A stretch of DNA of 40,001 bases from Escherichia virus TH20, in the sequence record MT446394.1; one strand, given 5' to 3'. The position numbers and the translations under genes are program-made. Below, in pieces: positions 1 to 40,001 of this stretch (its first letter is position 1; each line of letters begins with the position of its first letter). The notes beneath the pieces were generated by a model, which saw only the letters and a program-made list of their open reading frames with translations, made no database searches and was not told the origin of the DNA.

Positions 1-807
1 GTTGACGGTAGGCTGAAGGTTGAATGACCCTAAGAACATCAGGTTCAGACGAGTGGTATCCTTCTTGCGGTATTCCTGCCAGACCGGGAAACCATCAGGT
101 GTGACCCAGTGTACCGGAAGGCAAGGCTTCAGGATTTCACCCGTCTTCTTGTCCTTCACTTCAGCAGCCAGCAGCTTGGCAGCACCTTGAAGCCACTTCA
201 TAGCGTCTACCGCAGCAACTACGGTCACGCTCACAGCTTCCCAAATCATCTTAGCCATGAATCGGGACGCTTGGCTTGGCTCGGTGAACATAGCTCCAGA
301 CCCTGCGTCAATTGCGGGCATCACGATGTCCTCGTAAACTTGGTCTGCGAAGCCGTACTCTTTCGACCCGTAGGCCAGAGTCATGACTGAGCGCTTAGTA
401 ACCTTGCGTGACATACCGTAAGTCAGCCACTGCCGGGCCAGCTCTCGTGTCCCCAGCTTGAGACGTTCGGTAATCTCACCAGTTTTCTTGTCCTCGTGAG
501 TTACCATCTCGTTGTCCGTGCCGTTAACCAACAGGACTTTAAGCTCCTCCTCAATGCGGTCAGACACGATGCGGTAGATGTCTTGGACCTTACCGGAAGG
601 CGTCAGGTTTACTGCATGTCCACCGATGTGATCACGAAGCATCGCGCTGAAGTGCTGAATCCCAGAGCAGGACCCATCGAAAGCTATCGGCAGCGAGCAG
701 GAGTAAGACAAACCGTGGTGCATTACGCCAGCATACTCGAAGCAGAACGCTAGGAAGCAGAACGGAGAGTCTAACTTACCCCACCACTCAATGCTGTCCA
801 TCGGTGC
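1..807. repeat. Window-end duplication, copy 1 (same sequence as 39195-40001); artefact of wrapping a circularised or permuted assembly
   Basis: Track ORFs 109..390 and 496..753 have identical translations to 39303..39584 and 39690..39947 (offset 39,194); first 46 nt match by eye. Confidence 0.9.
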
Positions 808-2385: not shown

Positions 2386-2408
2386 GAGTCCTATAGTGAT
2401 AATTAAGT
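2386..2408 (-). promoter_or_regulatory. Phage-RNAP promoter-like site (variant TTAATTATCACTATAGGACTC) about 70 nt upstream of the RNAP gene
   Basis: CACTATAGG core on minus strand, +1 G at 2391; differs from window consensus at -10 and +3 to +6. Confidence 0.45.
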
Positions 2409-8255: not shown

Positions 8256-10805
8256 TTAAATGGTTGCTATTTGCCACCGTCGATCATAGTAATGGGAGAA
8301 TCCGCTATACGTCAAAGTCATATGAACAATAGCCATTGATATTGATGCTGACGGGCAGCTGACACGGATGAATGTTTGTCCGCCTCTAACTAATTTCTGC
8401 ACATTAAACCCTGACAGGCTTTTATCCCCGGCATCAAGATTACTCCATAAAGCCCCCGATGCTACGTTGGACTCGCTACTACCAGACATACTAAACATCA
8501 AACGCCCTCCAGCCTCTCTACCACCAAGTCCATTTTTGTTTACGGGTATGATTGACATTTCCCCGGCAAGGAAGCACGCACCATACCTTGATTCTTCACC
8601 GACAGTGGTTAGCAGAATGTCTACCGCTCTGTTCCACGGAAGTATGAATGTCGCCTGCTCGGTTTTTACTTCATTAAAATACGCGTCAGCTGTCACATTT
8701 ATTGACGAAAGAGTTACGCCGTCATAGGAGTTACGCCCTTCTAGTGGTGCATGGCCATATACCCTATTTCCTGCTCTGACGCTTCGGATTCTGGTGTCTG
8801 CTAATCTTGAGGCGTCAGCAGCTTTAACGAATCTGAAATTATCTCCTAAAACCAGAGAGTTACCGTAAGCATTAACGTTTCCTGACGTATTTTTGTTTAT
8901 TAAGGCAATATGGTAATCCGCCTTAACATAACCGGAGTCCAGCACAATACTTCCATTCGGCATTCTTGCCTCGCTTGTCGGCATTTCAATGAACCGAGTG
9001 ACACCAGTGTTCATTGAACTTTGAATCCAACATGACAATCCCTTAAGGGTGAACTTAAACTGGTCATCTGTTTCTGCATAATCAGAGAAATCAATACCCA
9101 CAGTGCCGTTTATGCCCTCGATACCCATGCCGTCTATTGTTACGGACCGCAACTGCCCACCTACACGATGTGGTCGTATACAACCATCAGCGGCGATATT
9201 TGACGCAGTTACATACATGACAGGGTATCCACCAGCTACCGGTTCGTACGTACTTCTGTCTATGGAATAACCCCAGAGAAAGCCATCGTCGCAGTGGTGC
9301 GCCCATATAGAATTAATGTTGGTGCTGGTATTTCCACTAAGAGCAATGCCATACTTGCAATCGTACATATAGATGTTTTCTATTGTACTGACGAAAGTAA
9401 GCGCCGGTAGCGCGAATTTATAATGATAGAACTCAACATTACGAATCGTGCACAGTTTACCACCACCACCCGATAATTCGGACCCACTTATCATCAACGG
9501 GCATCCAACATAATCTGCGTCAGCATTTCTGAAAGCAATGTTTTCAACAGAAAGGCTATGGCCCCACGAGGTACTTACGAACCCACCAGTTGTCGATGTG
9601 TATATAATGCTTTTACGGGGAGAGTCACCGATAAGGCTAAGCATTACCCCATCCCATCTATACGCGCTAATGTCAATCTGTGTGCTGCCCATATAGATTG
9701 GCTGTTCGATTAATAAAGGAATATTGTGCGCAATACTTGCGGTATACGCAGCCAGCATCGCGGCCCCGTCGTTATGGGTTCCGGAAAGGTTGGCAGCCCC
9801 CATGCTTGGCGCTTTAGGATATGGAGTACCCTGAATGGTGCTGCCGACGATATATGGAGCATCCATCCATGCGCCAAACATTTTAGGAGTAATTCCCCGA
9901 ACGTTTGATAAGTCCCTTTTCCAGCGCTTACCTCCACTAGTAATTATAACAACGCCATTATCATCATTAGTTGTGGAATCTGCTAAGTCCGCATAGAACC
10001 ACCCACCACCAGAATCACCAGACTCATTTGGTGCAATTGATGTTGTATGTTTTTCTACAAAAATGCGCTGGCCATCAACATCAGGTTCAATAGTTCTTAA
10101 TGTTGATATATCATCGCATTTGCCGATTAACTTAAATCCATCGCTTTTATTTAATTGACTCCTTAATGAAGCATCACCTACACTAACCCACGCACCTACT
10201 CCAATCCCACCGGAAGTTTCAGGAGTTGAACCAGCAGGAACGTTCTTTGGAAGAGTACCATCCCAGCGGTAATAATCACCATCCTCTTCCCATAGCAGGA
10301 CCGTGTTCCATGTTGTAACGTTGAAGCCTTTCTCGAAGGAGCGACTGGTAATATAGCCAATTCGACCAGCTTCCTTGATACTCGCAGCTATTCCTCGTGC
10401 TTCGTCCTCGCTATCCTTAGCGTTGCTAGCAGAGCTACCAGCAGCAGCGGCATATTCCTTCGCTAAGTCAACCGTTTGGTCTCGACCTTCTTCTGCAATA
10501 TGGATAGCCTGAAGCTCTGCATTGGTCAGGTCACTAGCTGTCAACACTGAGCCATTCCTGAAGTCTACCACTAAGTCAGTTCCAGTCTGACGGTGAATAC
10601 GAACGATGTCGAAACCTGATTGGTCAACCAGCATCTCAATCATCGTTGGATTAAGGAATCGGTAATCTCGACCAGCTTCCAGTACACGGTTCAGGGCAGG
10701 GTTAGAGCTATTCACCAGCGTAACAACAACAAACGTTCTGGCTAGGTAGTCGAACTCAATCCTGTACTGAGTGTTTCCTGAAGGGAATTGTGTAATCGTG
10801 GACAT
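8256..10805 (-). CDS. Tailspike: T7 gp17-like N-terminal anchor fused to a depolymerase-like beta-helix body, 849 aa
   Basis: N-terminus FDYLARTFVVVTL...VDFRNGSVLTASDL resembles T7 gp17 1-150; remainder is Gly/Ser/Thr/Asn-rich as in pectate-lyase-fold capsule depolymerases; AAGGAGG upstream. Confidence 0.9.
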   Translation of the reverse strand: MSTITQFPSGNTQYRIEFDYLARTFVVVTLVNSSNPALNRVLEAGRDYRFLNPTMIEMLVDQSGFDIVRIHRQTGTDLVVDFRNGSVLTASDLTNAELQAIHIAEEGRDQTVDLAKEYAAAAGSSASNAKDSEDEARGIAASIKEAGRIGYITSRSFEKGFNVTTWNTVLLWEEDGDYYRWDGTLPKNVPAGSTPETSGGIGVGAWVSVGDASLRSQLNKSDGFKLIGKCDDISTLRTIEPDVDGQRIFVEKHTTSIAPNESGDSGGGWFYADLADSTTNDDNGVVIITSGGKRWKRDLSNVRGITPKMFGAWMDAPYIVGSTIQGTPYPKAPSMGAANLSGTHNDGAAMLAAYTASIAHNIPLLIEQPIYMGSTQIDISAYRWDGVMLSLIGDSPRKSIIYTSTTGGFVSTSWGHSLSVENIAFRNADADYVGCPLMISGSELSGGGGKLCTIRNVEFYHYKFALPALTFVSTIENIYMYDCKYGIALSGNTSTNINSIWAHHCDDGFLWGYSIDRSTYEPVAGGYPVMYVTASNIAADGCIRPHRVGGQLRSVTIDGMGIEGINGTVGIDFSDYAETDDQFKFTLKGLSCWIQSSMNTGVTRFIEMPTSEARMPNGSIVLDSGYVKADYHIALINKNTSGNVNAYGNSLVLGDNFRFVKAADASRLADTRIRSVRAGNRVYGHAPLEGRNSYDGVTLSSINVTADAYFNEVKTEQATFILPWNRAVDILLTTVGEESRYGACFLAGEMSIIPVNKNGLGGREAGGRLMFSMSGSSESNVASGALWSNLDAGDKSLSGFNVQKLVRGGQTFIRVSCPSASISMAIVHMTLTYSGFSHYYDRRWQIATI

Positions 10806-10851: not shown

Positions 10852-10874
10852 GTTTCCTATAGTGATAGTTTAGT
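10852..10874 (-). promoter_or_regulatory. Phage-RNAP promoter upstream of tailspike gene (phi17 position): ACTAAACTATCACTATAGGAAAC
   Basis: 23-mer overlaps gene 16 stop; followed in the leader by hairpin GGAGGC-N10-GCCTCC (10831-10852) and the RBS. Confidence 0.7.
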
Positions 10875-13800
10875 CCTTGATGTGGATGCCTTGCTCCTCA
10901 AACGTTCCAAGCAACAGCTTCTGGGTAATTGGGTCGTTAGGAACCAGTTCACGGAACGTATTATACATCCCGGTCATGTAGTCTCGCTCGTTGACACGAG
11001 TATCAGCCTTGAGGTAGCCAGCCAAGTTGTAAGCCGAAGCACCAACGTTAGCAGCATATCCGAAAGCGGGAACCTGCTCCAAGAAGCTACCAACAACATT
11101 CATCACAGGGTCACTTGTAGCTGCACCATACGCGATGGCACGTTCAGGTTTCTCTGTAGGTGAACGAGGAAGGATAGACGAACGTAGCATCTTAGTGTCC
11201 TCATACCCAGCGATCCCGCCCAGAATGTTGGCGACACCTAGTGGTCCACCGAGATGTGAACTACGTGATAGAGCTGCATATCCAATCATCGTTGGGTCCA
11301 GAGCTTGCTTGAGGTAGTCACGGTCTCGACCATCCTGCATAGCGTAAGCCTTGACATGCACCTGAGCCATGTAGTAGATACCAGCAAGACCCATAGAGAT
11401 CACAGTGGACAGAGCGGCGTCCATCGCTCGGTTGTTCTTCGTGGCGTTATAGAAGGTTCGCATGGTACGTCCATTGATGGACTTGATGACGAAGTTCTTA
11501 AACTGAAGGACAGTCTTAGCGAGAGGACCATAAGCCTTGGCGTCCATGTTTGACAGCTTGTGGGGCCGGAGTAACGTTTCGTCAGCGATGGTGTCACCCA
11601 TACGCCACAGGTCCATAGCCCTTGGGTCCTGACTGAACGCCTTCTTATCCTTGATGGTATACTTCCCGTCTGGACCACGAGTCACTGACTCACGGATTAA
11701 TGACTTAATGCCCTTCCACTGCTCGTCGGAGATACCAGCGGTCTTAAGCCAGCGGTCATCGAACTTACGCTTACTACCAGTCAGGCTATGCTCAACGATG
11801 TCAGACAGGAAGCCTTGACGTCCAGCATCTAACAGGTAGTTGGTCGTACCATTGAGGACTTTAGTGAACGGAGAGCGTACTGCAAGTTCACCAGTGTAAT
11901 ACTTAGCAGTCCCCAGAGCTGTAGCTGTACCACGACCGAGGTCACTGTAAGACCGCAGACGGTCAATGACGTCCTGTTTAGACGGGCGGATTGAGTCATC
12001 AAGTTCCTTACCGAAGAGAACATTGTGAAGGTCCTTAATCTCTGAGGCTCCGACCTTCTTGTTACGGAAGGCTAGGTCACGGAACATCGGGACTCCATGA
12101 AGCATTGCACGAACGTTACCGCGAGCCAGCATACCACCAATCTCCGTTAAGTTCTGAACACCCATGTAGGCATTCTTAGCGAAGAACGATAGGTCTGTCA
12201 TTGTGCGCATCACGGTAGCGAAGGCTGCATCGTCAGCACCATCACGTCGAGCACGACCAGTGAGAATCTTCAAGGTGTCACGTAAGGTCGAGACCTCACC
12301 TTTCAACTTACCGTCATCACCAGCCTTGTTCATCATGGTCTCAACCAAGTCCTTCATTTCCTTCGTGGTCTTGCCTGTACCAGCCATGATAGCAATGTCA
12401 CCATTAACTCGACGGTTGTAGGCCGGGACAATCTTGTCCATGTCCCACTCACGCAGGTTGTTGACACTGAAGGTCTGCCCATTAGGTAGGACGATTGACA
12501 TATCGCTATCGAACAGGTTACGAGCCTCAAGGAAGCTGTTGTTCTCCAGACCAACCAGACCGCTGATGTTCTCTTCCATTACGGATGAACGTTCGAACTG
12601 CTCGGTGTGGGAGATACCGTAAGCCTTATCGTTGGCGTACTTATCTACCGCAGCAGCAAGTCCCTCTGGAGTCAACGTAGGGTCAGCCTCTAAGAGTGCC
12701 TCGTCCACGCGTTTCTTGACTTCAGGTCTGGACGCATAGCTGGTCAACCATGACTTCTTGATGGCCTCCTGCAACGCCTCTTGACTCCCAAGCTCCTTGA
12801 TGTACAGCTCCTTCATCTGTTTGCTATACACGTGAGGGACGTAGGTTCCCTTGAAGCGGCTACCCGGAAAGATAGACTGAGCGTCTGGCCGACCAAACAT
12901 AGCTGGGTTCTCCATCATCTCACGCTTGGCGTCAAACTGGTTCTTCAGTAGGTCATAGACTTTCAGTTCTCCCGGAGTCAGTTCAGCCTTCAGGTTTCCG
13001 CTACCATCTTCGATAGCCATAGACACGCGCTGGTAGATGTCCTGACGGAATGCTCCAGAGTCTCGCCAGAATGCTGTCTGGAAGTACGGGTCCTTTAGTG
13101 CCTCAGTAACCGCATCGTCGATGTCGTTGTAGAACCGATGGTCCACAGCACGAAGTCTCTCGAACACGTCTGACGATGTTGTCCCGATTTTACCTGAGGC
13201 CCCAGACTGCATACCAGTAGGTGAACGCACTAAGTCAGCAGCTACTCCACGAATCTCAGGGTTCTCAGACCGAAGCAGCTTCAGGCCAATCTCGGTAAGT
13301 CCACCAAGGTTCACACCAGCAGCGGCACGTTCCGGCTCAATCACTTCGTCAAAGACTTGACGTGTCTTAGGGTTCAGAGGGTTCTCACCAATCAGGATTG
13401 AACCGTCTTCTAATCGTACACTTCCCGGCTCATTCGGAACGTCAGCGAACTTAACGCCTTGATGACTAAAGGTCTGCTCACCTTCCTGAATAGGGAGACG
13501 AGACAGGTCCTGACCAACAACGTTACGAGCGGTCTCACGAGCTTCCAGACGTGTAGCTGGACCAGCAAACTCGTTGGTTGACTTGCCTAGGGCCTTGCCG
13601 ATAGCGTCCCCGATAGCTGTCATTCCCCCACCGAAGAGAGCACCGCCCATAATTGCCTCAGCCACGTGAGCGTCCCCACCAGCAACTGAGGTTCGAGCAA
13701 TCTCGGATGCCCCAGCCAGAGCACCAGACTGAGCAGCCACAGTGAACATCTTGTTGACTAGCTTCCCACCTTTACCTACCTGCCAAGCAATAGGAACGTA

Positions 13801-23208: not shown

Positions 23209-23231
23209 TCTCCCTATAGTGATAGTTTAGT
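23209..23231 (-). promoter_or_regulatory. Phage-RNAP promoter upstream of capsid gene (phi10 position): ACTAAACTATCACTATAGGGAGA
   Basis: Best match to consensus including GGGAGA start; +1 G at 23214. Confidence 0.8.
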
Positions 23232-28992: not shown

Positions 28993-31145
28993 GTTGGTCC
29001 AATCTTACCCTCCGTATCAAGTTCACACTTGAAGTTATAGAAGCGTCCGACCTCACGCATCGCCTCTTGAGCAATACGGACGACATCTTCTGCTATCTCC
29101 TGAGTACGACACGCTATCTGCAATTCATCGTGAATCCAAGCCATTAGCGCAAAGTCTCCGTCCCATCCGTTACCGTAACCAGCCTCTTCAAGTTTCTTCT
29201 CAGTAAGTACCATCCAGTGCTTACAGACTACCGCACCATCACCCTGAAGTAATGCGTTCAGTGCTGAGTGTGGAGACCGTATGTGGATACGGCGACCGTC
29301 AAGTCCACGCAACCAACGGCGTTTCCACTTAACGATGTTCTCTCCGTCCACCCACTTAGAGTCTGATATTAACGTATTACTCACAGCTTCCCTGAGGTCC
29401 TTGATGGCTGGTGTGCCCTCAATGAATTTCTTCATGAGAGCTGAACCTTCCTTCTTACCACCGCCGACTATCAGTCCAATCTTAGCGGCCCCTGCACCAT
29501 ACAGGAACGCATAGATGAACGTCTTAGCGTTGTTACGGAAAGCATCATGGTCGTGGTTCGACTTATCGCGTGGGACGTTAGGTGCTAACCCAGCGTTTAC
29601 TGCGTTGGCCCAGTGGATGTCACCTTCGACCACAGTCTTCGCATATGCACCACCATCAAACGGAGCCGCTCGGTTCCCCAGACAACGAAGCTCAAGACCT
29701 GAGGCATCCACACCTACTTGAATCCAAGGGTCTGGCTTACCGTCCTTCTTGTTCCACGCTGCACCGAAAGCACCACGGCAAGTCTCACCATACGGAGCAC
29801 CGTTAGCAGGGACCTGAGCCATGTTTGGTGAACTATGAGTCGCACGTCCGGTTACTGCCCCGCATGGGTTGATTGAACCGTGCATACGTCCGTCTGGACC
29901 TACAAGTTTCAACCATGCGTTCTTACCTTCAGCAGCCTGCCCGATTCTCTTCTGGACTACCAGATACTCACGGACCAGCTCTACGCAAGCCTGAGCCTCT
30001 GCGTCTGGTAACTTAACGTGTTCTAACGTCTCGTCATCGACTACAGGTTTCCCAGTGTCAGTGAAGTCCACAGGCTCCCATCCACGCTCTATCAGGACTT
30101 TCGCTAAGTGGTCGCCGCTTCCCGGATTAAACTCAACGTAAGTGATGGGCGTGAATGGTGCCCCCTCCATCGTGTCTCGTGAGTCGAACTCGCAAGGCTC
30201 CAGACCTAAGCGTTGTGCTTTGTTCTTCGGTTTCTTAAAGATGCCACCGACCTTAGGATACACGACTCGCGGATACTTCGGAAGGTCCTTACCTGTCCGT
30301 GGATGCCTGAAGAACTCCTTGCCTCCCTTTGGTGCATACCAGCTACCGAAAGTCGAGCGCAGCTTGTCCAGCAACTCCGCACGTTTGACAGTGAGTTCAC
30401 GATATAAGCCTTCGACCATCTCGGTGTTCATCGGATAGCCGTTACGTTCCATCTTCGCACAGGTCCACGCAGCATCATGTTCCAGACGCAACGCATAAAT
30501 CTGTTCGAAAGCGAACTGTTCAGACTGGAAGTAATACTTGTCAGTCAGGAACTTCTTGAACAACGCCAGTGTGACCACAACGTCTTGAACGTTATAGTCC
30601 AGCATCTCCTGAGATGGGAACAACCATTCGTCCCCAGCCTTATATTCGATACCCTCGGCCTTGCACTTGGCAACGTAATCATGTTTGTACTCACCCTTCA
30701 TCTCACCGAGACGATAACCCCAAGCCTCAAGAGACTGACGTCCCATCATCTTAGGTGGCAGACGACCCGCTTTCACCGCGCCCATGTCTGAGAACTTAAT
30801 GTTTGGATACATCAAGCGGCCCAGCACCAAGGTATCAATCATCTTGTGTTTCGGGAAGTTAAAACGTTTCCCAAAGTACAGACGCTTCAGCTTGTCTATA
30901 GCCGGGACGTCATAGTTGATACCATTATGGAAGACAAGCATACCATCAGGTGATGCGGCAATCTCTTCCACCTTCTGCACATACTCTTTGAAGCCACCGA
31001 CGATACCGACCATCGGAGCTACCCCATACTTAAGGGTCTCATTCGACTCGGCATTAATCAGGACCCCACAGTGAAACTGGGACACGGTGTCAAGGAGACC
31101 GTTGGTCTCGATGTCCGAACCCCAAATATCCTTAAGGTCAAACAT
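28974..31145 (-). CDS. DNA polymerase (T7 gp5-like), 723 aa
   Basis: Co-linear with T7 gp5 end to end; real start ATG 31145 (GGAGGA 6 nt upstream); track start 31181 is GTG inside the stem-loop. Confidence 0.97.
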   Translation of the reverse strand: MFDLKDIWGSDIETNGLLDTVSQFHCGVLINAESNETLKYGVAPMVGIVGGFKEYVQKVEEIAASPDGMLVFHNGINYDVPAIDKLKRLYFGKRFNFPKHKMIDTLVLGRLMYPNIKFSDMGAVKAGRLPPKMMGRQSLEAWGYRLGEMKGEYKHDYVAKCKAEGIEYKAGDEWLFPSQEMLDYNVQDVVVTLALFKKFLTDKYYFQSEQFAFEQIYALRLEHDAAWTCAKMERNGYPMNTEMVEGLYRELTVKRAELLDKLRSTFGSWYAPKGGKEFFRHPRTGKDLPKYPRVVYPKVGGIFKKPKNKAQRLGLEPCEFDSRDTMEGAPFTPITYVEFNPGSGDHLAKVLIERGWEPVDFTDTGKPVVDDETLEHVKLPDAEAQACVELVREYLVVQKRIGQAAEGKNAWLKLVGPDGRMHGSINPCGAVTGRATHSSPNMAQVPANGAPYGETCRGAFGAAWNKKDGKPDPWIQVGVDASGLELRCLGNRAAPFDGGAYAKTVVEGDIHWANAVNAGLAPNVPRDKSNHDHDAFRNNAKTFIYAFLYGAGAAKIGLIVGGGKKEGSALMKKFIEGTPAIKDLREAVSNTLISDSKWVDGENIVKWKRRWLRGLDGRRIHIRSPHSALNALLQGDGAVVCKHWMVLTEKKLEEAGYGNGWDGDFALMAWIHDELQIACRTQEIAEDVVRIAQEAMREVGRFYNFKCELDTEGKIGPTWKECH

Positions 31146-31160
31146 GGTTAATCCTCCGTT

Positions 31161-31205
31161 TAGTCTAATCATAAAGGCCACTCGATGTGAATGACCTTGA
31201 GTCTA
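31161..31205 (-). promoter_or_regulatory. Conserved stem-loop, candidate RNase III site upstream of DNA polymerase gene
   Basis: Second copy of AATCATAAAGGCCAC...ATGACCTTGAGTCTA. Confidence 0.4.
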
Positions 31206-31208
31206 GAC

Positions 31209-33088
<1,880 letters not shown>

Positions 33089-33136
33089 TCACTCCTTAAT
33101 CACAAATGCGAACAAAGGGACAGGACTCGCGGGTCC

Positions 33137-33159
33137 CATCCCTAAGGTGATAGTTTAGG
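33137..33159 (-). promoter_or_regulatory. Phage-promoter-like site with altered melting region (CACCTTAGGG instead of CACTATAGGG) upstream of primase-helicase gene
   Basis: Upstream half CCTAAACTATCAC is consensus; -4/-3 changed; function uncertain. Confidence 0.35.
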
Positions 33160-33370
33160 CTTTGAAGAACTGAGACAACTGGTCAGCTTTGGTGTCAGCC
33201 TGACGTGCCTTCATGCCAGCTTCCAGTGACGCGATGGTCAGCTTGTCAGCCAGAGCAGCAGCATCAGCCGCACCGTCAGCAGTCTTCTCTGCTACCTTTC
33301 GTTCCATAACCGCAGCACGACGATAACCACGCACCACCAGACGACCAAGAAATTCGATAAGTTTAATCAT
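33155..33370 (-). CDS. Hypothetical small Ala-rich protein, 71 aa
   Basis: ATG 33370 with AAGGAGA upstream; pattern MxKLIxxLGxLxVRxY...QLSxFF resembles a small T7 protein I cannot place reliably. Confidence 0.5.
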   Translation of the reverse strand: MIKLIEFLGRLVVRGYRRAAVMERKVAEKTADGAADAAALADKLTIASLEAGMKARQADTKADQLSQFFKA

Positions 33371-33393
33371 TTAGTGTTCTCCTTTAGAGTTTA

Positions 33394-33852
33394 TTAACCG
33401 CGGTCGGAAGTGACTAGTCCGTTGGTAGACAGCCAGCGCTGTAAGTCGAAACTTGGACACGCCTTTGGTGCTACGTCATGATGTGCTTTGATTTCTGCCT
33501 GAGGATACAGGACCTTCAGGTCAGCCAGCTTGTTGCGCAGGGAGTTCATCTGGGCTGGAGTGAAGTTAGCTTCAAACTTGCCCTTAGCGTCAATTCCACC
33601 TACAAGGCAGACGCCTACGGACCAGGAGTTCCAATCCTTAACGTGTGACCCTACGACATTGACCGGGCGACCCTCTTCCACAGTACCATCGCGCTTGATG
33701 ATAAAGTGGTAGCCTACGTCCAGCCATCCTTGCTGCTTGTGCCACATGCGGATGGTCTCTACCCCAATGTCCATCTCTGGCTTGGTAGCCGAACAGTGAA
33801 CGAAGATAGCGTCAGTTCGGGACCGTGGTTTGAACTGAACCTTACTTACCAT
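33394..33852 (-). CDS. N-acetylmuramoyl-L-alanine amidase / T7 lysozyme (gp3.5-like), 152 aa
   Basis: TDAIFVHCSATKP, HKQQGWLDVGYHFIIKRDGTVE, HHDVAPKACPSFDL, LVTSDRG match T7 gp3.5. Confidence 0.95.
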   Translation of the reverse strand: MVSKVQFKPRSRTDAIFVHCSATKPEMDIGVETIRMWHKQQGWLDVGYHFIIKRDGTVEEGRPVNVVGSHVKDWNSWSVGVCLVGGIDAKGKFEANFTPAQMNSLRNKLADLKVLYPQAEIKAHHDVAPKACPSFDLQRWLSTNGLVTSDRG

Positions 33853-34151
33853 TGTACACCACCAGCTCTACTACGACCAGATTCAGATGTGACAGGAGGG
33901 ACGCTTGATGCTGGCAGGACTTGAGGTTTATCCTCTACAATTTCCTCAAGATATTCATTTAAAACCCATGCTCCCCACATTCCGTCAGGCTGCGTGTTAG
34001 GACCCGCGCTACCGTGCTTGTAGTAGCCACGCTCGGAGGATTCTACCAGAGTAATGCCAAGCCGGGTTGATGGGTCTTTCACACATTTCGTAACGATAGT
34101 ACTTTTAGGCCACCCGTGGCGGCTAACTTTAAGTTTATATTTCTGAGTCAT
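33846..34151 (-). CDS. Hypothetical protein, 101 aa, inserted between endonuclease I and lysozyme genes
   Basis: ATG 34151 overlaps endonuclease I stop (ATGA), AAGGAG upstream; no T7 counterpart recalled; C-terminal half low complexity. Confidence 0.5.
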   Translation of the reverse strand: MTQKYKLKVSRHGWPKSTIVTKCVKDPSTRLGITLVESSERGYYKHGSAGPNTQPDGMWGAWVLNEYLEEIVEDKPQVLPASSVPPVTSESGRSRAGGVQW

Positions 34152-34603
34152 CACTTAACTCCTTTCTTCTTTGGAATGAGTATACCCGAAGGCAGACGTA
34201 CAGTCGCCTCTCGAAGCCACTCAACCGGGATGAACTTATCGGCATACTTATAGCCGTTCTTTTCGCACCATGCGCCATACGTGGTCGGAGACCCTTTGTA
34301 TAGCTTGGAGCGGGAACTTGAGAACACGAACCGGATGTCTAACTCTGGGTGCTGTTCTCGTACCAGAAGATGCTTCTTACGGTCATCACTATCGAAGATA
34401 CCTTTGGTCTCCACGATGATACCGTTAGGAAGGATAAAGTCCGGCGTGTAGAAGTGGTCCGAAGCAGGAACAACGTACCCAATCTTATATGCTTCATACT
34501 CTGCCTTGACTCCGTTCTTCTCGAGCCACTCTTGGTTCTTTGCTTCCAGTCCAGAGCGGTAAGTCCCGACTGCGTGTCCTCGTGATGCTGACCACTTAGC
34601 CAT
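34151..34603 (-). CDS. Endonuclease I, Holliday junction resolvase (T7 gp3-like), 150 aa
   Basis: FRSGLE, YTPDFxLPNGIxVETKG, SDDRKKHLLxREQHPELDIRxVFSSSRxKLYKGSPT match T7 gp3; real start ATG 34603 (GGAG upstream); track start is TTG. Confidence 0.9.
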   Translation of the reverse strand: MAKWSASRGHAVGTYRSGLEAKNQEWLEKNGVKAEYEAYKIGYVVPASDHFYTPDFILPNGIIVETKGIFDSDDRKKHLLVREQHPELDIRFVFSSSRSKLYKGSPTTYGAWCEKNGYKYADKFIPVEWLREATVRLPSGILIPKKKGVK

Positions 34604-35036
34604 GTTTGATTCTCCATATAATTGCTTGCGGAGTAACACCAAACATCTTGGCTAAATCTACAGGCTTCATATCAGACTTCAGGATAAACTCTACGTCTTC
34701 CTCGGTCAGCTTAGTCTTCTGGTTAGCTTCTCCTTTGAACACTGGCGGTTTCGAATGACGACCCCGCTTCACGCAATCCTGCATGTTGTCTGTCTGAGTC
34801 CCGACTTCAAGATGTTCCGGGTTACAGCAGCAAGGGTTGTCACATTTATGGCGAACTAGGAGGCCATCAGGTATTGGACCACAGTGCTCTCTATAAGAGA
34901 CTCTATGCGCGTAGTCCTGTTTCTGGTTGCCTATGGATATTCTACCATAACCTTGTTTGTACCGGGAGCGTTGCCACTCCCAGCAGCCAGAAGGAGAAAC
35001 TATAGAGTAAGCCTCCAGTTTCTCTTTCAGTGTCAT
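34596..35036 (-). CDS. HNH homing-endonuclease-like protein, free-standing, between SSB and endonuclease I genes
   Basis: HRVSYREHCGPIPDGLLVRHKCDNPCCCNPEHLEVGTQTDN; ATG overlaps SSB stop (TAATG). Confidence 0.8.
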   Translation of the reverse strand: MTLKEKLEAYSIVSPSGCWEWQRSRYKQGYGRISIGNQKQDYAHRVSYREHCGPIPDGLLVRHKCDNPCCCNPEHLEVGTQTDNMQDCVKRGRHSKPPVFKGEANQKTKLTEEDVEFILKSDMKPVDLAKMFGVTPQAIIWRIKHG

Positions 35037-35734
35037 TAGAAGTTGTAGTCACCGGCGTTGTTCTGACCATCGTCCTGACCATCATCGTCAGACCCGAAGT
35101 CATCACCGCCGAAGTCACCATCGGTTGACGCTTTGTAGCCAGTACCGAGGTCTTCATCATCACCCCAGCCACCATCGCCACCAGCACCATCACCTTTCCA
35201 CTCCTTCAGCTCTACCAGAAGGCAGGACTCAAGCTGGAGCTTAACGCTTGCACCAGTCGCAGCGTTCCACTTAAACGGCAGGACTTTAAACTTGACCTTC
35301 AGCTTAGACCCAGCGCCAATATTCGGGACGTCACGGATGAGTTTAGCATCAGTGTCGTAGAACCGTAATACGATAGGCTCGGACTTGCCGTCTTTCAGGT
35401 AAGACGCAAAGCATTTAAACTTAAGGGTAACAGTACCGTCACCATTCTCAATCCACGGCATATCGCCTTCACGCGGCTCGATAGGCTTCTTGCCACGCTG
35501 AACCTGAGGTGGGTTCTTCTCGTGGTCTGCGAGTGCTTTCGCATACGCATCGTCGTGAATCTTCTGTAAGACATCAATCATCTTACGGACCTTCGGGTCA
35601 TCCAGACTGAAAGTCAGGTTAACCTTATGCTCACCACGCTCATTAAACTTGGTGTCTGCTTTGTTCAGCCATGCATAAGGCTCAACGATACCAGCTACCG
35701 GAGTGGTGAAAGTCTTCAGTTGCTCTTTAGCCAT
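35036..35734 (-). CDS. Single-stranded DNA-binding protein (T7 gp2.5-like), 232 aa
   Basis: PPxVxRGKKPxxPxEGDMP, NGDGT.T.KFKC.AS, GASVKLQLES..LVEL and acidic tail ending in F match T7 gp2.5. Confidence 0.9.
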   Translation of the reverse strand: MAKEQLKTFTTPVAGIVEPYAWLNKADTKFNERGEHKVNLTFSLDDPKVRKMIDVLQKIHDDAYAKALADHEKNPPQVQRGKKPIEPREGDMPWIENGDGTVTLKFKCFASYLKDGKSEPIVLRFYDTDAKLIRDVPNIGAGSKLKVKFKVLPFKWNAATGASVKLQLESCLLVELKEWKGDGAGGDGGWGDDEDLGTGYKASTDGDFGGDDFGSDDDGQDDGQNNAGDYNF

Positions 35735-35773
35735 CGGTGTAAATCTCCTAATTTAAAGTTACGAACTGGACGT

Positions 35774-35796
35774 CTGTCCTACAGTGATAGTTTAGG
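35774..35796 (-). promoter_or_regulatory. Phage-promoter-like site with CACTGTAGGA core (phi2.5 position)
   Basis: Upstream half consensus; -3 A to G; overlaps stop of gp2-like gene. Confidence 0.5.
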
Positions 35797-35950
35797 TCTC
35801 AGGACGAATCCGTCCGACCACAAACCCAGCGTCCTCATACTCTTGGGACTTCAGGGTAGCCTCTTCAAGAGACTTTGCGTACACCGGAACATCGAAGGAC
35901 TGAATGCGCCCCTCAAGCTCCACGATGTATTTCTTCTCAACCTCAGTCAT
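35792..35950 (-). CDS. Host RNA polymerase inhibitor (T7 Gp2-like), 52 aa
   Basis: Hand translation; [14 protein letters not shown]...[13 protein letters not shown] parallels T7 Gp2 SFEVPIYAETLDEA...YVPAGFEVTRVRP; AAGGAG upstream; below track cutoff. Confidence 0.75.
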
Positions 35951-36028
35951 AGACCGCGCTCCTTCCATTGGTTGTATAACGTAATGTAGTCCGGGTTGAG
36001 AGTCTTCTCATACATCTCCCGGCACCAC

Positions 36029-36367
36029 TCACTCGGCAGCATAGCACTTACCTTTATGCAAGTCGAACAGCTTCTGATAGAAGGATGCTTTGTTCAGGTC
36101 CTTCTCCATAGTAGCCAGTTCGGACTTCTTACCAGCCCGGAGTCGATACTTCAGGACGTTGCCAAGGCAGAACCCACGGAACTCACTCACAGTCATTGAC
36201 CGTGCAATAATCTCAATGGATTCCACGCTATCAAAGACCTGATAGTGGGACGGCTTGCGGACGTCATCAATTTCTTGTAGTTTGTTACCTACAAGTTTAC
36301 CAACGTGCGGGAATCGGTCGTCACCATTACATGCTTCACAGTATGTGGTGCTATCACAGTATGTCAT
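36029..36367 (-). CDS. DUF3310-type protein, possibly T7 gp1.7-like nucleotide kinase family, 112 aa
   Basis: PSHYQ...SIEII...F.LGNVLKYRLRAGKK...EKDLNKA.FY pattern; N-terminal Cys cluster; family assignment from memory. Confidence 0.45.
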   Translation of the reverse strand: MTYCDSTTYCEACNGDDRFPHVGKLVGNKLQEIDDVRKPSHYQVFDSVESIEIIARSMTVSEFRGFCLGNVLKYRLRAGKKSELATMEKDLNKASFYQKLFDLHKGKCYAAE

Positions 36368-36621
36368 CAGAGCGCCTCCTTAATTACCAGAAGTGCCAGC
36401 TTAATGCGAGGCCATTTTGTAATGACCACAGGCACATCAACTTGTTCTTTATCCATAGCCTTCAGCATAGACTTGCGGGTGACTAGCGCATGAACTGCTG
36501 GAGACAGAGCCACTGTCTTACCAAAGCGGGGTAATGGTTGATTAGCTTTATGGAAGCTGAATGGGCTATGCGACAGGTGGAAGCTTCGAGTAAATCGGTT
36601 GAACATTAAGTTTTTAGACAT
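36367..36621 (-). CDS. Hypothetical protein (gene 1.6 region), 84 aa
   Basis: ATG 36621 with AAGGAGA upstream, first ORF after a phage promoter. Confidence 0.45.
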   Translation of the reverse strand: MSKNLMFNRFTRSFHLSHSPFSFHKANQPLPRFGKTVALSPAVHALVTRKSMLKAMDKEQVDVPVVITKWPRIKLALLVIKEAL

Positions 36622-36647
36622 AAGGTTTCTCCTTTGGTCGGTTAGGG

Positions 36648-36670
36648 TTGTCCTATAGTGATAGCTTAGG
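36648..36670 (-). promoter_or_regulatory. Phage-RNAP promoter (phi1.5/1.6 position): CCTAAGCTATCACTATAGGACAA
   Basis: One mismatch upstream of core; +1 G at 36653. Confidence 0.6.
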
Positions 36671-36729
36671 GTCTAGCTGGTGGCCCAGACGCAAAGAAAC
36701 CCAGCAGTCCTAAGACCACTGGGTTGACG

Positions 36730-36909
36730 TTAACGCATCTTAAAGTTGTTCACCTTAGCAGCCTTACGGTAGCGATGACTCATGGTTGATATTGTCTCTT
36801 CATCGAAGTAGGGCTTGGCCCACTTCTTGAGTTTACGATACCACAGCTCGCCATTTACCACAGCGTAGAGTTGACCACTTGCTATGTTGATATAAAGTTG
36901 TGTACTCAT
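36730..36909 (-). CDS. Hypothetical small protein after ligase, 59 aa
   Basis: ATG 36909 overlaps ligase stop (ATGA); track start 36948 is GTG inside ligase. Confidence 0.4.
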   Translation of the reverse strand: MSTQLYINIASGQLYAVVNGELWYRKLKKWAKPYFDEETISTMSHRYRKAAKVNNFKMR

Positions 36910-37988
36910 GACTTCACCGTTGGGTTGTCTTCGGTTCCACGCCAGCACTTGAAGCTGGGGTGACGAAGGGAGCCATCAGGGAACCGCTCCATGAAGAGGA
37001 CTTCACACTGCCAGCCTTCGTATGGGTTATCGAAGCAAGGTTCGTTACCACCAATGCCGTACGGCGCAAAGATGCCAACCGCAGCAAGCGTGTCCTCCTT
37101 GACCTTAGCCGTAAACTCGTCCTTCTGTTCTTCAGTCAGACCGCAGGCGTTGACCACCATGCCATCCTCCAGTAGAACCTCAAAGCCGATGACCTTACCT
37201 TCGTTAGCCTTACCCTGAGTCCCCCACACGAGGCCACACACGGTCCCGTCGATTGTCTCCTCAGGCTTCATTTTCCACATGCCTGACTTCTTGCCACGCT
37301 TCCACTTACCCAGCGGGTCTTTGACTATCAGACCCTCGTGTCCTTCCAGACGCTTCTCTTCGTACAGGGAGTTGAGCGACTCAAGGTCATAGACCGTGTG
37401 TGACTCAGACAGAACCCAGTCGATTTCCGGGAAGTATTTCTGGAGGAGAGGGACGATAGCTTCGGCCTTCAGGCGTGTGACGCTATGGATAGGACCTTCT
37501 GCTTTCGGGTCGGCTATGGTCGTCATGTCGACGACACCGTAGACCACAACCTGAAGTCGGGACCGGGCGACCCAGAACGGGACCTTCTTGCCACGGCCCT
37601 GATAGCATTCAGCGAACGCCTCGTTGTTAGGCTTCAGCCACTTCGTTCGGATGAGACCTGAGGAGGTGTTGAAGTCCACACCTTTGACCATTACCTCGCC
37701 ATCAATCATCAAGCCCACGCCTTCGTAGCCAGCTTGACGAAGGAACCATCGCCAGTCAGCTTGGGTCCACGCATTCCCTAACTCAGAGTTCATCCACTCC
37801 AAGGCTGGAAGAGGTTTAGACTCACGGCTCAGCCAATAGGTCTCACCTTCACGCAGGACCGGGAGGTTCAACCGGACACCATCGTACTTCACTTCAGCTT
37901 CCAGAGACCCGGCTGCTTCCAGTGCCTTCTTAACACCAGACTCAGAGTAATCTACAGCGCGGTGCGGGTTGGTTTTGATAGTTGTCAT
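36906..37988 (-). CDS. ATP-dependent DNA ligase (T7 gp1.3-like), 360 aa
   Basis: IKTNP, adenylation motif KYDGVR, EGLIVKDP, KRGKKSGxWKMKPE, GSLRHPSF match T7 ligase; preferred start ATG 37988 overlapping gp1.2 stop (TAATG). Confidence 0.95.
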   Translation of the reverse strand: MTTIKTNPHRAVDYSESGVKKALEAAGSLEAEVKYDGVRLNLPVLREGETYWLSRESKPLPALEWMNSELGNAWTQADWRWFLRQAGYEGVGLMIDGEVMVKGVDFNTSSGLIRTKWLKPNNEAFAECYQGRGKKVPFWVARSRLQVVVYGVVDMTTIADPKAEGPIHSVTRLKAEAIVPLLQKYFPEIDWVLSESHTVYDLESLNSLYEEKRLEGHEGLIVKDPLGKWKRGKKSGMWKMKPEETIDGTVCGLVWGTQGKANEGKVIGFEVLLEDGMVVNACGLTEEQKDEFTAKVKEDTLAAVGIFAPYGIGGNEPCFDNPYEGWQCEVLFMERFPDGSLRHPSFKCWRGTEDNPTVKS

Positions 37989-38251
37989 TATGCTTTGCTC
38001 CATGTGTCGATATGGTCAGCGAGACCGTTGAGGTAGTCTGTTGCAGTATTATACAGCACGTCTTCATCGTAGTGTGCGAAGGTCTCAAGCGCGAAGATGT
38101 TACCAGCTCGGTCCTCCACCCTGAGTTTCATGCACTCTTGGCACGACACATGGTCTTGAAACTCCTGAGATATAACAGCGAAGTCTAACTGATAAAGCCT
38201 GTTACACGCTGCTTTGAAAGCGTTGAGGTTGCCACTATAAAGTCGGCCCAT
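37988..38251 (-). CDS. dGTP triphosphohydrolase inhibitor (T7 gp1.2-like), 87 aa
   Basis: MGRLYSGNLxAFKAA.N.L.QLD.AVI and HxDEDVL.N..TD.LN match T7 gp1.2. Confidence 0.85.
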   Translation of the reverse strand: MGRLYSGNLNAFKAACNRLYQLDFAVISQEFQDHVSCQECMKLRVEDRAGNIFALETFAHYDEDVLYNTATDYLNGLADHIDTWSKA

Positions 38252-38255
38252 TTGG

Positions 38256-38435
38256 TTATGCTCCTACGAAGTATTTCTCTTGGTTGACCAGAGAGTCTTT
38301 ACCTTCAGCGTTTCGGAAAGCTCCCTTCACGCCACCACCACGTTTAGTCTTGTTCAGCTTGCGGCCCTTAGGAATGTAACCTTCAGTCTGCTGGCGTTCA
38401 CGGATGCGCTCAAAGTTGATAGTGTTCTGATACAT
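38256..38435 (-). CDS. T7 gp1.1-like small basic protein, 59 aa
   Basis: Hand translation; KGRKLNKTKR identical to remembered T7 gp1.1 segment; GGAGA upstream. Confidence 0.6.
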   Translation of the reverse strand: MYQNTINFERIRERQQTEGYIPKGRKLNKTKRGGGVKGAFRNAEGKDSLVNQEKYFVGA

Positions 38436-38475
38436 ATGGCTAAATCTCCAGTAATTTACGTTTAGTAGTAAGGGT

Positions 38476-38520
38476 TAATCATGAAGGCCACGACTTTGAG
38501 TCATGACCTTTAGTCTAATC
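38476..38520 (-). promoter_or_regulatory. Conserved stem-loop, candidate RNase III site (R1.1 position)
   Basis: Third copy of AATCAT(A/G)AAGGCCAC...ATGACCTT(G/T)AGTCTA. Confidence 0.4.
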
Positions 38521-38538
38521 CTATAGTGATAGTTTAGG
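38516..38538 (-). promoter_or_regulatory. Phage-RNAP promoter (phi1.1 position): CCTAAACTATCACTATAGGATTA
   Basis: Near-consensus 23-mer, +1 G at 38521. Confidence 0.7.
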
Positions 38539-38613
38539 GTTAACCTCTTCTGCGTTGGATTAAAGTGAATACTGCAAGTGCTCCCAGCCACAAGTCCAGT
38601 AACTGTAGGTCTG

Positions 38614-38814
38614 TCATTTGGTTGCCGCCTCTTTAAGCGCTTTCTCGTGTGCCTGCTCAACCTGCTGCGCCAGCCACTTGAATGGGACTTTAAGCTTCTT
38701 TGACTTCTCTGTAGGGATGACCGTGGTCTTCACCAGACCCTTGCCGTTGTGTTCTGTTACGGTCACGATTTGAGTCCCACCATTAACGCCAGTATGCTTG
38801 TGTGCAAATTTCAT
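38614..38814 (-). CDS. Hypothetical protein directly after the RNAP gene, 66 aa
   Basis: ATG 38814 with AGGAGA upstream, 14 nt after RNAP stop; Lys-rich; no family recognised. Confidence 0.45.
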   Translation of the reverse strand: MKFAHKHTGVNGGTQIVTVTEHNGKGLVKTTVIPTEKSKKLKVPFKWLAQQVEQAHEKALKEAATK

Positions 38815-38828
38815 AGCTCTCTCTCCTG

Positions 38829-40001
38829 TTAAGCGAATGCAAAGTCTGAAGACAAGATGTCTTCGATATTCAGTTTACCTTTCTTCGGAAGCTCTGGCAA
38901 CTTATCGCGCTGGCTCTCATGAAGCTGGTATTCAAACTGCTCATAGAAGTCAAGCAGCACATCGTTGTCTCGGTAGGTCTCGACCATCGTCTCACGGACA
39001 CCACGGAACAGATACTCAGCGTCAGCCGGGATGGTCCCGAAGCTATCATGAATCACTGCGAATGACATCACGTCATACTTGCGATGAGTGTGGACTACAG
39101 TCTTGCGTAGGTGGCTACCATCTTGTGAGTGGACGAAGTTCGGGCTAATGCCTGACTCCTGCTTGTGCTTGTCCAGCTCTTTCTTCGTGCCTTTGTTGAC
39201 GGTAGGCTGAAGGTTGAATGACCCTAAGAACATCAGGTTCAGACGAGTGGTATCCTTCTTGCGGTATTCCTGCCAGACCGGGAAACCATCAGGTGTGACC
39301 CAGTGTACCGGAAGGCAAGGCTTCAGGATTTCACCCGTCTTCTTGTCCTTCACTTCAGCAGCCAGCAGCTTGGCAGCACCTTGAAGCCACTTCATAGCGT
39401 CTACCGCAGCAACTACGGTCACGCTCACAGCTTCCCAAATCATCTTAGCCATGAATCGGGACGCTTGGCTTGGCTCGGTGAACATAGCTCCAGACCCTGC
39501 GTCAATTGCGGGCATCACGATGTCCTCGTAAACTTGGTCTGCGAAGCCGTACTCTTTCGACCCGTAGGCCAGAGTCATGACTGAGCGCTTAGTAACCTTG
39601 CGTGACATACCGTAAGTCAGCCACTGCCGGGCCAGCTCTCGTGTCCCCAGCTTGAGACGTTCGGTAATCTCACCAGTTTTCTTGTCCTCGTGAGTTACCA
39701 TCTCGTTGTCCGTGCCGTTAACCAACAGGACTTTAAGCTCCTCCTCAATGCGGTCAGACACGATGCGGTAGATGTCTTGGACCTTACCGGAAGGCGTCAG
39801 GTTTACTGCATGTCCACCGATGTGATCACGAAGCATCGCGCTGAAGTGCTGAATCCCAGAGCAGGACCCATCGAAAGCTATCGGCAGCGAGCAGGAGTAA
39901 GACAAACCGTGGTGCATTACGCCAGCATACTCGAAGCAGAACGCTAGGAAGCAGAACGGAGAGTCTAACTTACCCCACCACTCAATGCTGTCCATCGGTG
40001 C
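38829..40001 (-). CDS. T7-type RNA polymerase (gene 1), C-terminal 390 codons plus stop; the part above 39194 duplicates 1-807
   Basis: Translation ends ...DILSSDFAFA as T7 RNAP; contains HQESGI.PNFVHSQDGSHLR and IHDSFGT active-site region; stop at 38829. Confidence 0.95.
   Translation of the reverse strand, partial: APMDSIEWWGKLDSPFCFLAFCFEYAGVMHHGLSYSCSLPIAFDGSCSGIQHFSAMLRDHIGGHAVNLTPSGKVQDIYRIVSDRIEEELKVLLVNGTDNEMVTHEDKKTGEITERLKLGTRELARQWLTYGMSRKVTKRSVMTLAYGSKEYGFADQVYEDIVMPAIDAGSGAMFTEPSQASRFMAKMIWEAVSVTVVAAVDAMKWLQGAAKLLAAEVKDKKTGEILKPCLPVHWVTPDGFPVWQEYRKKDTTRLNLMFLGSFNLQPTVNKGTKKELDKHKQESGISPNFVHSQDGSHLRKTVVHTHRKYDVMSFAVIHDSFGTIPADAEYLFRGVRETMVETYRDNDVLLDFYEQFEYQLHESQRDKLPELPKKGKLNIEDILSSDFAFA
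39195..40001. repeat. Window-end duplication, copy 2 (same sequence as 1-807)
   Basis: See copy 1. Confidence 0.9.

Follow-up and report, generated by a model that had tools for sequence, protein, structure and literature searches.

Two putative attenuated middle promoters with altered melting elements upstream of genes 2.5 and 4 in a K1F-like phage

Results

The stretch of DNA analysed here (the window, 40,001 nt) holds the complete, circularly permuted genome of a T7-like coliphage of the genus Kayfunavirus (K1F-like phage) of 39.2 kb with its genes on the minus strand, and gene 1 is split across the window ends because the window goes round the 39,194-bp genome. Two promoter-like sites, one upstream of gene 2.5 and the other upstream of gene 4, fall within the DNA-metabolism block that separates gene 1 from gene 6, as expected of class II promoters. 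The features involved are listed below, with promoter positions counted from the predicted start site.

38829..40001, minus strand: 3' part of gene 1 (phage single-subunit RNA polymerase); the remainder lies at 1-2316
35792..35968, minus strand: gene 2 (host RNA polymerase inhibitor), whose TAA stop codon (35794-35792) doubles as the TAA at -15..-13 of phi2.5
35774..35796, minus strand: phi2.5 promoter (-17..+6), CCTAAACTATCAC TGTA GGACAG; predicted +1 is the G at 35779
35780..35783, minus strand: phi2.5 melting element (-4..-1), reading TGTA, not TATA (one change, -3 A>G)
35036..35734, minus strand: gene 2.5 (single-stranded DNA-binding protein, 232 aa), first gene downstream of phi2.5
33394..33852, minus strand: gene 3.5 (amidase/lysozyme), 70% identical to T7 lysozyme
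33155..33370, minus strand: 71-aa ORF (gp3.7-like); its TAA stop (33157-33155) is the TAA at -15..-13 of phi4
33137..33159, minus strand: phi4 promoter (-17..+6), CCTAAACTATCAC CTTA GGGATG; predicted +1 is the G at 33142
33143..33146, minus strand: phi4 melting element (-4..-1), reading CTTA, not TATA (two changes, -4 T>C and -3 A>T)
33117..33142, minus strand: stem-loop at the 5' end of the predicted phi4 transcript, GGGAUGGGAC-CCGCGA-GUCCUGUCCC (minimum-free-energy fold), beginning at +1
31385..33085, minus strand: gene 4 (primase/helicase, 566 aa), first gene downstream of phi4
23209..23230, minus strand: phi10, the consensus reference promoter, CTAAACTATCAC TATA GGGAGA, upstream of the capsid gene

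A preliminary description of this DNA had assigned the two sites to DNA-metabolism genes, which is borne out by the products encoded downstream, namely gp2.5 (SSB; the orthologue is annotated Gp2.5 SSB in MZ234024 and EcoDS1) and the gp4 primase/helicase (relatives 99% identical, with an orthologue annotated under that name). Both sites lie on the coding strand in the intergenic gap directly 5' of their gene, which carries a ribosome-binding site within a leader of 45 nt (AGGAG) for phi2.5 and of 57 nt (AAGGAG) for phi4. The cognate single-subunit RNA polymerase is encoded in the same genome as both promoters: the gene 1 product (893 aa) is 99% identical to EcoDS1 gp1 and 64% identical to T7 RNAP, with a specificity loop of the K1F type. 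The intercalating hairpin, which opens the promoter, reads GNAAAD in this polymerase versus GVVGQD in T7 (V237 region).

The pattern CTAAACTATCAC-N4-GG has seven exact matches in the window, all on the minus, gene-bearing strand, compared with 0.01 expected in shuffled sequence, and is therefore not a product of chance. At -4..-1, five of these copies carry TATA, one TGTA, and one CTTA. The last two are the flagged sites, whose coordinates are precisely those of -17..+6 in a T7-type promoter on the minus strand. As the preliminary description had stated, they keep the recognition half, agreeing with CTAAACTATCAC at 12/12 positions, and are altered at -4..-1, with TGTA at 35774-35796 and CTTA at 33137-33159. 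Both retain GG at +1/+2, and their initially transcribed sequences (GGACAG in phi2.5 and GGGATG in phi4) depart from the consensus GGGAGA. By nearest-neighbor energies over -5..+1, TGTA and CTTA stack more strongly than TATA, by about 1.4 kcal/mol. The late promoters of the window all carry TATA, and the phi10 site at 23209-23230, which reads CTAAACTATCACTATAGGGAGA, is the sole copy that agrees with the derived consensus throughout. Two further deviant sites were missed by the preliminary description: one at 36648-36669 has G at -13 with TATA intact, and the other, at 2386-2407 before gene 1, reads CTTAATTATCAC.

Comparison with relatives revealed that both sites are conserved in position in 24/24 Kayfunavirus genomes. 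The melting element of phi2.5 reads TGTA in 16 of these genomes and TTTA in seven, with one locus ending short of the site, while that of phi4 reads CTTA in 20, TAAA in two, CTAA in one, and TTAA in one; TATA occurs at neither site. Every one of the 12 binding-half bases is preserved in 23/23 copies of phi2.5 and in 20/24 copies of phi4. The late promoters phi6.5, phi9, phi10, and phi13, in turn, carry TATA in every copy present among 21 loci (phi10 in 21/21 relatives examined), and among the relatives compared, deviations in the melting element are confined to the region from gene 1.6 to gene 5. Thus, in the window as in its relatives, the two sites depart from the class III consensus, whereas the late promoters hold it. 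Much of the conservation at phi2.5 and phi4 reflects shared ancestry, identity in these regions exceeding 90% for most relatives.

Two further observations concern phi2.5. The site occurs as two haplotypes, TGTA-GGACAG and TTTA-GGAACA, whose flanks differ by indels, and each retains the 12-nt binding half and a non-A base at -3. In addition, in a sub-lineage whose promoters have another specificity (TAAACCCTCAC), phi2.5 reads ATAAACCCTCAC-TGTA, meaning that the binding half switched with the lineage and the G at -3 was retained. At phi4, the binding half of one relative (L029) differs from that of its other promoters at three positions (-16, -10, and -9), and the CCCT lineage is likewise off consensus at -10; judging from these mismatches, phi4 appears to be dispensable. 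A scan of positions 31000-38700 for host-type promoters and terminators returned no more than in shuffles and hence offers no support for a terminator rendering phi4 indispensable.

The predicted phi4 transcript starts on the first base of a stem-loop that is maintained in relatives by two-sided, compensatory changes (GAGAC/GUCUU and GACC/GGUU) around a variable loop, a coincidence that we count in favor of a live promoter. These changes were read directly from the sequences because in the MAFFT alignment of the leader the divergent lineage has its stem columns out of place. The loop of the window (CCGCGA) has one base more than its counterparts in EcoDS1 and K1F (CGTGA/CATGA).

The finding is real but ordinary: the identical 23-mers CCTAAACTATCACTGTAGGACAG and CCTAAACTATCACCTTAGGGATG are already annotated as phage promoters in the sister phage EcoDS1 (EU734172), where "promoter phi2.5" at 8719-8741 corresponds to window 35774-35796 and "promoter phi" at 11107-11129 to window 33137-33159. 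The flanking genes are the same, the polymerases are 99% identical, and nothing of substance differs between EcoDS1 and the window. The same sites are present in prototype K1F (NC_007456), with phi2.5 at 8501 and phi4 at 10868, and the window is another isolate of the genus to which EcoDS1 and K1F belong. Neither the annotation of identical sites in EcoDS1 nor the known class II pattern had been recognised in the preliminary description.

That pattern is found in T7 (NC_001604) at the same genome positions, where phi2.5 and phi3.8 (Dunn and Studier numbering; +1 at 9107 and 11180) precede gene 2.5 and the gene 3.8/4 block. Like the window pair, they are deviant at -4..-1, reading TATT and TAAA, respectively; accepted class II promoters of T7 thus break the TATA rule as well, with 6/10 deviating at -4..-1, these two included, compared with 0/5 class III promoters, and phiOR is not deviant either. 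The two phages differ in the details, since the substituted positions are -2 or -1 in T7 and -3 or -4/-3 in the window, T7 phi2.5 starts with A where the window promoter keeps GG, and the binding half has K1F specificity in the window, different from that of T7, where it is exact in phi2.5 and has three changes in phi3.8. A third variant of the pattern is seen in K11/KP32-like phages, in which a conserved promoter (ATTAGG..CAC TACA GGGAGA) located 180-740 nt upstream of gene 4 carries -2 T>C in almost all of about 40 loci, while nearly all other promoters, early and late, have TATA. These phages belong to a different genus and differ from the window in binding half and substituted position, and their promoter upstream of gene 2.5 has TATA.

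Literature searches for transcription-start, RNA-seq, or in vitro transcription data on K1F-like phages (Kayfunavirus) returned none, and the expected strength of the sites was gauged from T7 promoter variants. Among the variants listed in the supplement of Komura 2018, whose in vitro values are noisy, being based on single barcodes, the wild type scores 142-188 (mean, 169), -3 variants retain roughly 10-50% of wild-type activity (-3C, 53-83), -13T combined with -3T scores 29 and with -4C 11, and -2A is nearly neutral (138-161). The variant CAC-CTTA-GG, which has the melting element of phi4, scores 3.6, about 2% of wild type, compared with about 80-95% for T7's own TAAA, whereas TGTA and TTTA are found among the listed variants only in combination with upstream changes. 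These listed values indicate melting-element variants that are weakened rather than abolished, and if the T7 rules hold, CTTA would be near inactive, at about 2%. The T7 numbers may not be transferable to the polymerase of the window, given that it is just 64% identical to T7 RNAP and that its intercalating hairpin differs. More generally, changes to the region of melting and initiation affect initiation more than binding, and class II promoters are the weaker ones (reviewed in PMC11617373).

Discussion

Given their sequence, position, conservation, co-variation, and prior annotation, all of which are directly observed, we consider it likely that phi2.5 and phi4 are live but attenuated middle ("class II"-type) promoters read by the phage's own polymerase. 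With the -17..-5 half, which is bound as duplex DNA, at consensus, the polymerase should still locate both sites, while the -4..-1 element, which needs to be unwound, and the initially transcribed sequence are off consensus and, by analogy with T7, would destabilise the open complex. We infer that both promoters fire, less often than the late, consensus-type ones. Since T7 lysozyme moves T7 RNA polymerase off class II promoters (PMC6068830, PMC6938266), phi2.5 and phi4 may also be the first to lose out once the lysozyme gp3.5 binds the polymerase. As a result, replication genes would be made early and in moderate amounts, with later transcription concentrating on the structural genes. Genes 2.5 and 4 would also be reached by read-through from upstream promoters, so that each weak promoter may merely top up the transcript level.

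The preliminary description had left open whether the sites were deliberately weak or dead. The first option is favored by the positional conservation in 24/24 genomes, the co-variation of the phi2.5 binding half, the invariant late TATA, and the T7 class II parallel; the second is disfavored, least securely for the CTTA site. Dead relics would be former promoters that no longer initiate and that persist through close relatedness and the use of their TAA as the stop codon of the upstream gene. Such a reading could draw on the roughly 2% activity of the CTTA variant listed for T7, on the tolerance of L029 for a phi4 that mismatches its other promoters, and on the possibility that genes 2.5 and 4 are transcribed by read-through, there being no terminator-like signal above background back to the upstream promoters (in T7, a single terminator for T7 RNAP is described [PMC6068830]). 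A stop codon, however, needs just 3 bases, whereas the 12 bases of the binding half are kept almost throughout (23/23 and 20/24 copies). Decay would be expected to strike one particular 4-bp element no more often than the 13-bp binding half, and yet in phi2.5 this half was kept across two haplotypes with indel-differing flanks and, in the TAAACCCTCAC lineage, switched along with every other promoter. We therefore regard loss of function as improbable.

It seems equally unlikely that the sites are full-strength promoters, with a K1F-type polymerase indifferent to the bases at -4/-3 and substitutions there being neutral. The divergent hairpin tip (GNAAAD versus GVVGQD) and the near neutrality of some substitutions in the T7 element, such as the listed -2A, would fit this reading, but neutral -4/-3 positions predict drift at the late promoters, where every copy of phi6.5, phi9, phi10, and phi13 in 21 genomes has TATA. 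Moreover, the same split between promoters exists in T7 and in K11/KP32-like phages, and the increase of about 1.4 kcal/mol in stacking energy applies whatever the protein contacts. Finally, the deviant bases could be imposed by an overlapping function (a structure or a processing site within the RNA of read-through transcripts, or coding) and not by selection on promoter strength, which would agree with the conserved hairpin at phi4 +1 and with the RNase III sites located immediately downstream of several T7 promoters, including phi3.8 (PMC6938266). In the predicted fold, however, phi4 -4..-2 is unpaired, the stem beginning at -1/+1, and for phi2.5 the region gives a fold no better than shuffles do (z = -0.55), so that we reject RNA structure as what dictates the deviant bases. 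Coding constraint is rejected as well, with ORF overlap limited to the TAA stop at -15..-13 and both -4..-1 elements intergenic, past the upstream stop codon and well before the next start codon. An imposed origin of these bases is thus very improbable.

The importance of the finding is slight beyond annotation quality, and no open question becomes newly testable. On the practical side, searches for exact repeats miss sites of the phi2.5/phi4 type, as a result of which middle-gene transcription units in Kayfunavirus tend to be under-annotated; a 2026 Kayfunavirus genome report lists as promoters only the copies of CTWAACTATCACTATAGG. The tally of melting elements (non-TATA at phi2.5 and phi4 everywhere, TATA at the late copies examined) also provides a natural data set for tuning orthogonal promoters of the K1F type.

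At the level of the family, the sequence comparisons suggest attenuation via the melting element as a general design rule of T7-like phages. It is tempting to go one step further and to speculate, as a tentative reading that we hold at somewhat less than even chances, that the melting tetranucleotide of the replication promoters is actively held off consensus throughout the Studiervirinae, each lineage using its own substitution. The substitutions concerned would be -3G/T and -4C-3T in Kayfunavirus, -2A and -1T in T7, and -2C in K11/KP32-like phages. If this were true, the occurrence of G or T, and never A, at -3 of phi2.5 would reflect selection against the strong allele and not drift, and how strong a promoter is at a fixed genome position would be a trait that the family conserves and maintains convergently.

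Promoter copies with a perfect binding half and an altered melting element

With up to six mismatches allowed, a search of the window returned 11 promoter-like sites, every one of them on the minus strand. Exact matches to the strict pattern CTAAACTATCAC-N4-GG number seven, where shuffled sequence would give 0.01; five of the seven carry TATA at positions -4 to -1, and the other two are the sites ahead of gene 2.5 (phi2.5) and gene 4 (phi4).

Promoters and associated genes in the window
35774-35796, minus strand: phi2.5, CCTAAACTATCAC-TGTA-GGACAG
33137-33159, minus strand: phi4, CCTAAACTATCAC-CTTA-GGGATG
23209-23230, minus strand: reference site phi10, CTAAACTATCAC-TATA-GGGAGA
36648-36669, minus strand: phi1.6 copy, CTAAGCTATCAC; off consensus in the binding half (G at -13), TATA kept
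2386-2407, minus strand: promoter copy before gene 1, CTTAATTATCAC; off consensus in the binding half, TATA kept
35792-35968: gene 2, ORF ending within phi2.5
33155-33370: 71-aa ORF ending within phi4
38829-39194 and 1-2316, minus strand, across the junction: gene 1, single-subunit RNA polymerase, 893 aa

The preliminary description had held that phi2.5 and phi4 keep the upstream recognition half but change the melting region, and this proved real and correctly described: its coordinates span exactly -17 to +6, the binding half (-17 to -5) is perfect at both sites, and the melting element (-4 to -1) carries one change in phi2.5 (-3 A>G) and two in phi4 (-4 T>C, -3 A>T). In both, TAA at -15 to -13 (35792-35794; 33155-33157) terminates the ORF that lies before the site, so that -4 to -1 is noncoding, while part of the binding half is under dual constraint as promoter and as stop.

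In K1F-like phages, the two sites correspond to the middle promoters phi2.5 and phi4. They are already annotated in the record of the sister phage EcoDS1 (EU734172), whose 11 phage promoters include “phi2.5” (8719-8741) and “phi” (11107-11129), 23-mers identical to ours, as well as the equivalents of 36648-36669 and 2386-2407. Both sequences also occur in the prototype K1F, at 8501 and 10868, but no promoters are annotated in its RefSeq record (NC_007456). A 2026 Kayfunavirus genome paper gives as promoters only eight CTWAACTATCACTATAGG repeats and so overlooks variants like these.

When 8 kb of the region served as query, about 290 phage records matched, the top ones being Escherichia phages of the genus Kayfunavirus (K1F-like, Studiervirinae; 94-95% identity); the annotated genes of the best Kayfunavirus matches all run opposite to the window's plus strand. 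Since bases 1-807 recur identically at 39195-40001, the window represents a 39,194-bp genome in circularly permuted form, read past its start into an overlap. The gene 1 product shares 99% identity with EcoDS1 gp1 and 64% with T7 RNA polymerase; its specificity loop is of K1F type, and its intercalating hairpin reads GNAAAD versus GVVGQD in T7.

Conservation across Kayfunavirus

Gene 4 loci and capsid loci were taken from IMG/VR, and melting elements were tallied over 24 Kayfunavirus genomes (the window, EcoDS1, and MZ234024 among them), not all promoters being within reach of each locus.

Melting elements (-4 to -1) by promoter
phi1.1: TATA 7/7
phi1.6: TATA 19, TGTA 4
phi2.5: TGTA 16, TTTA 7, TATA 0
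phi4: CTTA 20, TAAA 2, CTAA 1, TTAA 1, TATA 0
Extra promoter downstream of gene 4 (not in the window): TGTA 8, TTTA 2
phi6.5: TATA 20/20

All copies of phi6.5, phi9, phi10, and phi13 carry TATA (21 capsid loci). phi2.5 occurs as two haplotypes, TGTA-GGACAG and TTTA-GGAACA, whose flanks differ by indels; the 12-nt binding half is retained in both, and neither has A at -3. The extra promoter, CT[AT]A[AG]CTATCAC-TGTA/TTTA-GGATAG, likewise with a non-TATA melting element, lies about 2.0-2.35 kb downstream of phi4, after gene 4, in ten relatives (loci L003, L009-L016, and L029); the window has no such site.

One sub-lineage, inside Kayfunavirus or adjacent to it (loci L011, L016, and L101; gp4 89-91% identical to the window's), has promoters that read TAAACCCTCAC, T3-like at -11 to -8. 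Its phi2.5 is ATAAACCCTCAC-TGTA: the binding half has switched along with all other promoters, and -3G is kept. This covariation is the best evidence here for phi2.5 as a functioning promoter. The case for phi4 is less firm. Within the TAAACCCTCAC lineage it reads TTAAACACTCAC, off that lineage's own consensus at -10. L029 is a mosaic genome whose other promoters are all K1F-type (CTAAACTATCAC), and its phi4 and leader (TTAAACACTCAC-TAAA-GGGATG...; L029 4900-5100) match the TAAACCCTCAC lineage (compared with L011) over the full 200 nt, probably a natural case of a phi4 mismatched to its polymerase. Given the deviation at -10 and this foreign cassette, phi4 is probably dispensable.

The phi4 leader

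The phi4 leader contains a stem-loop of 10-11 bp starting at -1/+1 (33117-33142, minus strand; stem GGGAUGGGAC/GUCCUGUCCC). Its stem is kept in relatives by two-sided changes (GGGAC/GUCC to GAGAC/GUCUU; GACC/GGUU in a divergent lineage), and its loop varies. The predicted hairpin fits a transcript starting at +1 and may be a 5' stabilizing hairpin or a processing site. RNA structure was rejected as the cause of the deviant phi4 bases, since -4 to -2 lie outside the stem. The phi2.5 region showed no notable RNA structure, and scans for host-type promoters and terminators gave background level only.

The short gap between phi4 and gene 4, directly behind this hairpin, is also an insertion spot, holding a tRNA-Thr(CGT) in one relative (L001 4908-4986) and a 59-aa ORF in two others (L017 and L019 4811-4990).

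Weak promoters or relics

A review (PMC11617373) sets out a two-domain promoter model in which -17 to -5 serve binding and -4 to -1 melting. By its account, a base change in the melting/initiation region has more effect on initiation than on binding, and class II promoters are of lower strength. Among the T7 promoter variants drawn from Komura et al. 2018 (PMC5937735), assayed in vitro as RNA/DNA read ratios with T7 polymerase and a single barcode each, wild type gave 142-188 (mean 169, taken as 100%), -2A 138-161 (~80-95%), -3C 53-83 (~30-50%), -2C 80 (~48%), -13T (itself neutral) plus -3T 29 (~17%), TGTA with three upstream changes 16 (~9%), -13T plus -4C 11 (~6%), and CAC-CTTA-GG 3.6 (~2%). 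These figures suggest that TGTA would keep roughly 10-50% of activity and CTTA a few per cent, an estimate that transfers only qualitatively because the intercalating hairpin of the window's polymerase differs from that of T7. Nearest-neighbor stacking energies over -5 to +1 (kcal/mol) come to -4.63 with TATA, -6.08 with TGTA, and -5.99 with CTTA.

The preliminary description had left two readings, deliberately weak promoters or dead sites. A dead relic is possible mainly for phi4, the copy with the lower expected activity and the deviating relatives; for phi2.5, the binding half switched in the TAAACCCTCAC lineage speaks for function. Overall, the comparisons argue for deliberately weak promoters as the best supported reading, and we consider it likely.

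Both sites fit a pattern long known from T7 class II promoters. Taking -17 to +6 around the annotated T7 start sites, 6 of 10 class II promoters deviate at -4 to -1 (TAAA in phi1.5, 1.6, 3.8, 4c, and 4.3; TATT in phi2.5), whereas TATA is kept in phiOR and in each of the five class III promoters. As T7 phi2.5 and phi3.8 occupy the positions that correspond to our two sites, the window shares this pattern, although its substitutions differ from those of T7. In T7, polymerase bound by lysozyme turns from class II promoters to those of class III, and a single terminator makes transcripts polycistronic (PMC6068830, PMC6938266); the lysozyme encoded in the window is 70% identical to that of T7. A parallel exists in another genus: in almost every K11/KP32-like locus (L036-L075), the conserved promoter that precedes gene 4 by 180-740 nt has TACA, while nearly all other promoters, early and late, have TATA. 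With this TACA pattern, at least three lineages appear to attenuate the promoter before the gene 4 block via its melting element, by a different substitution in each case.
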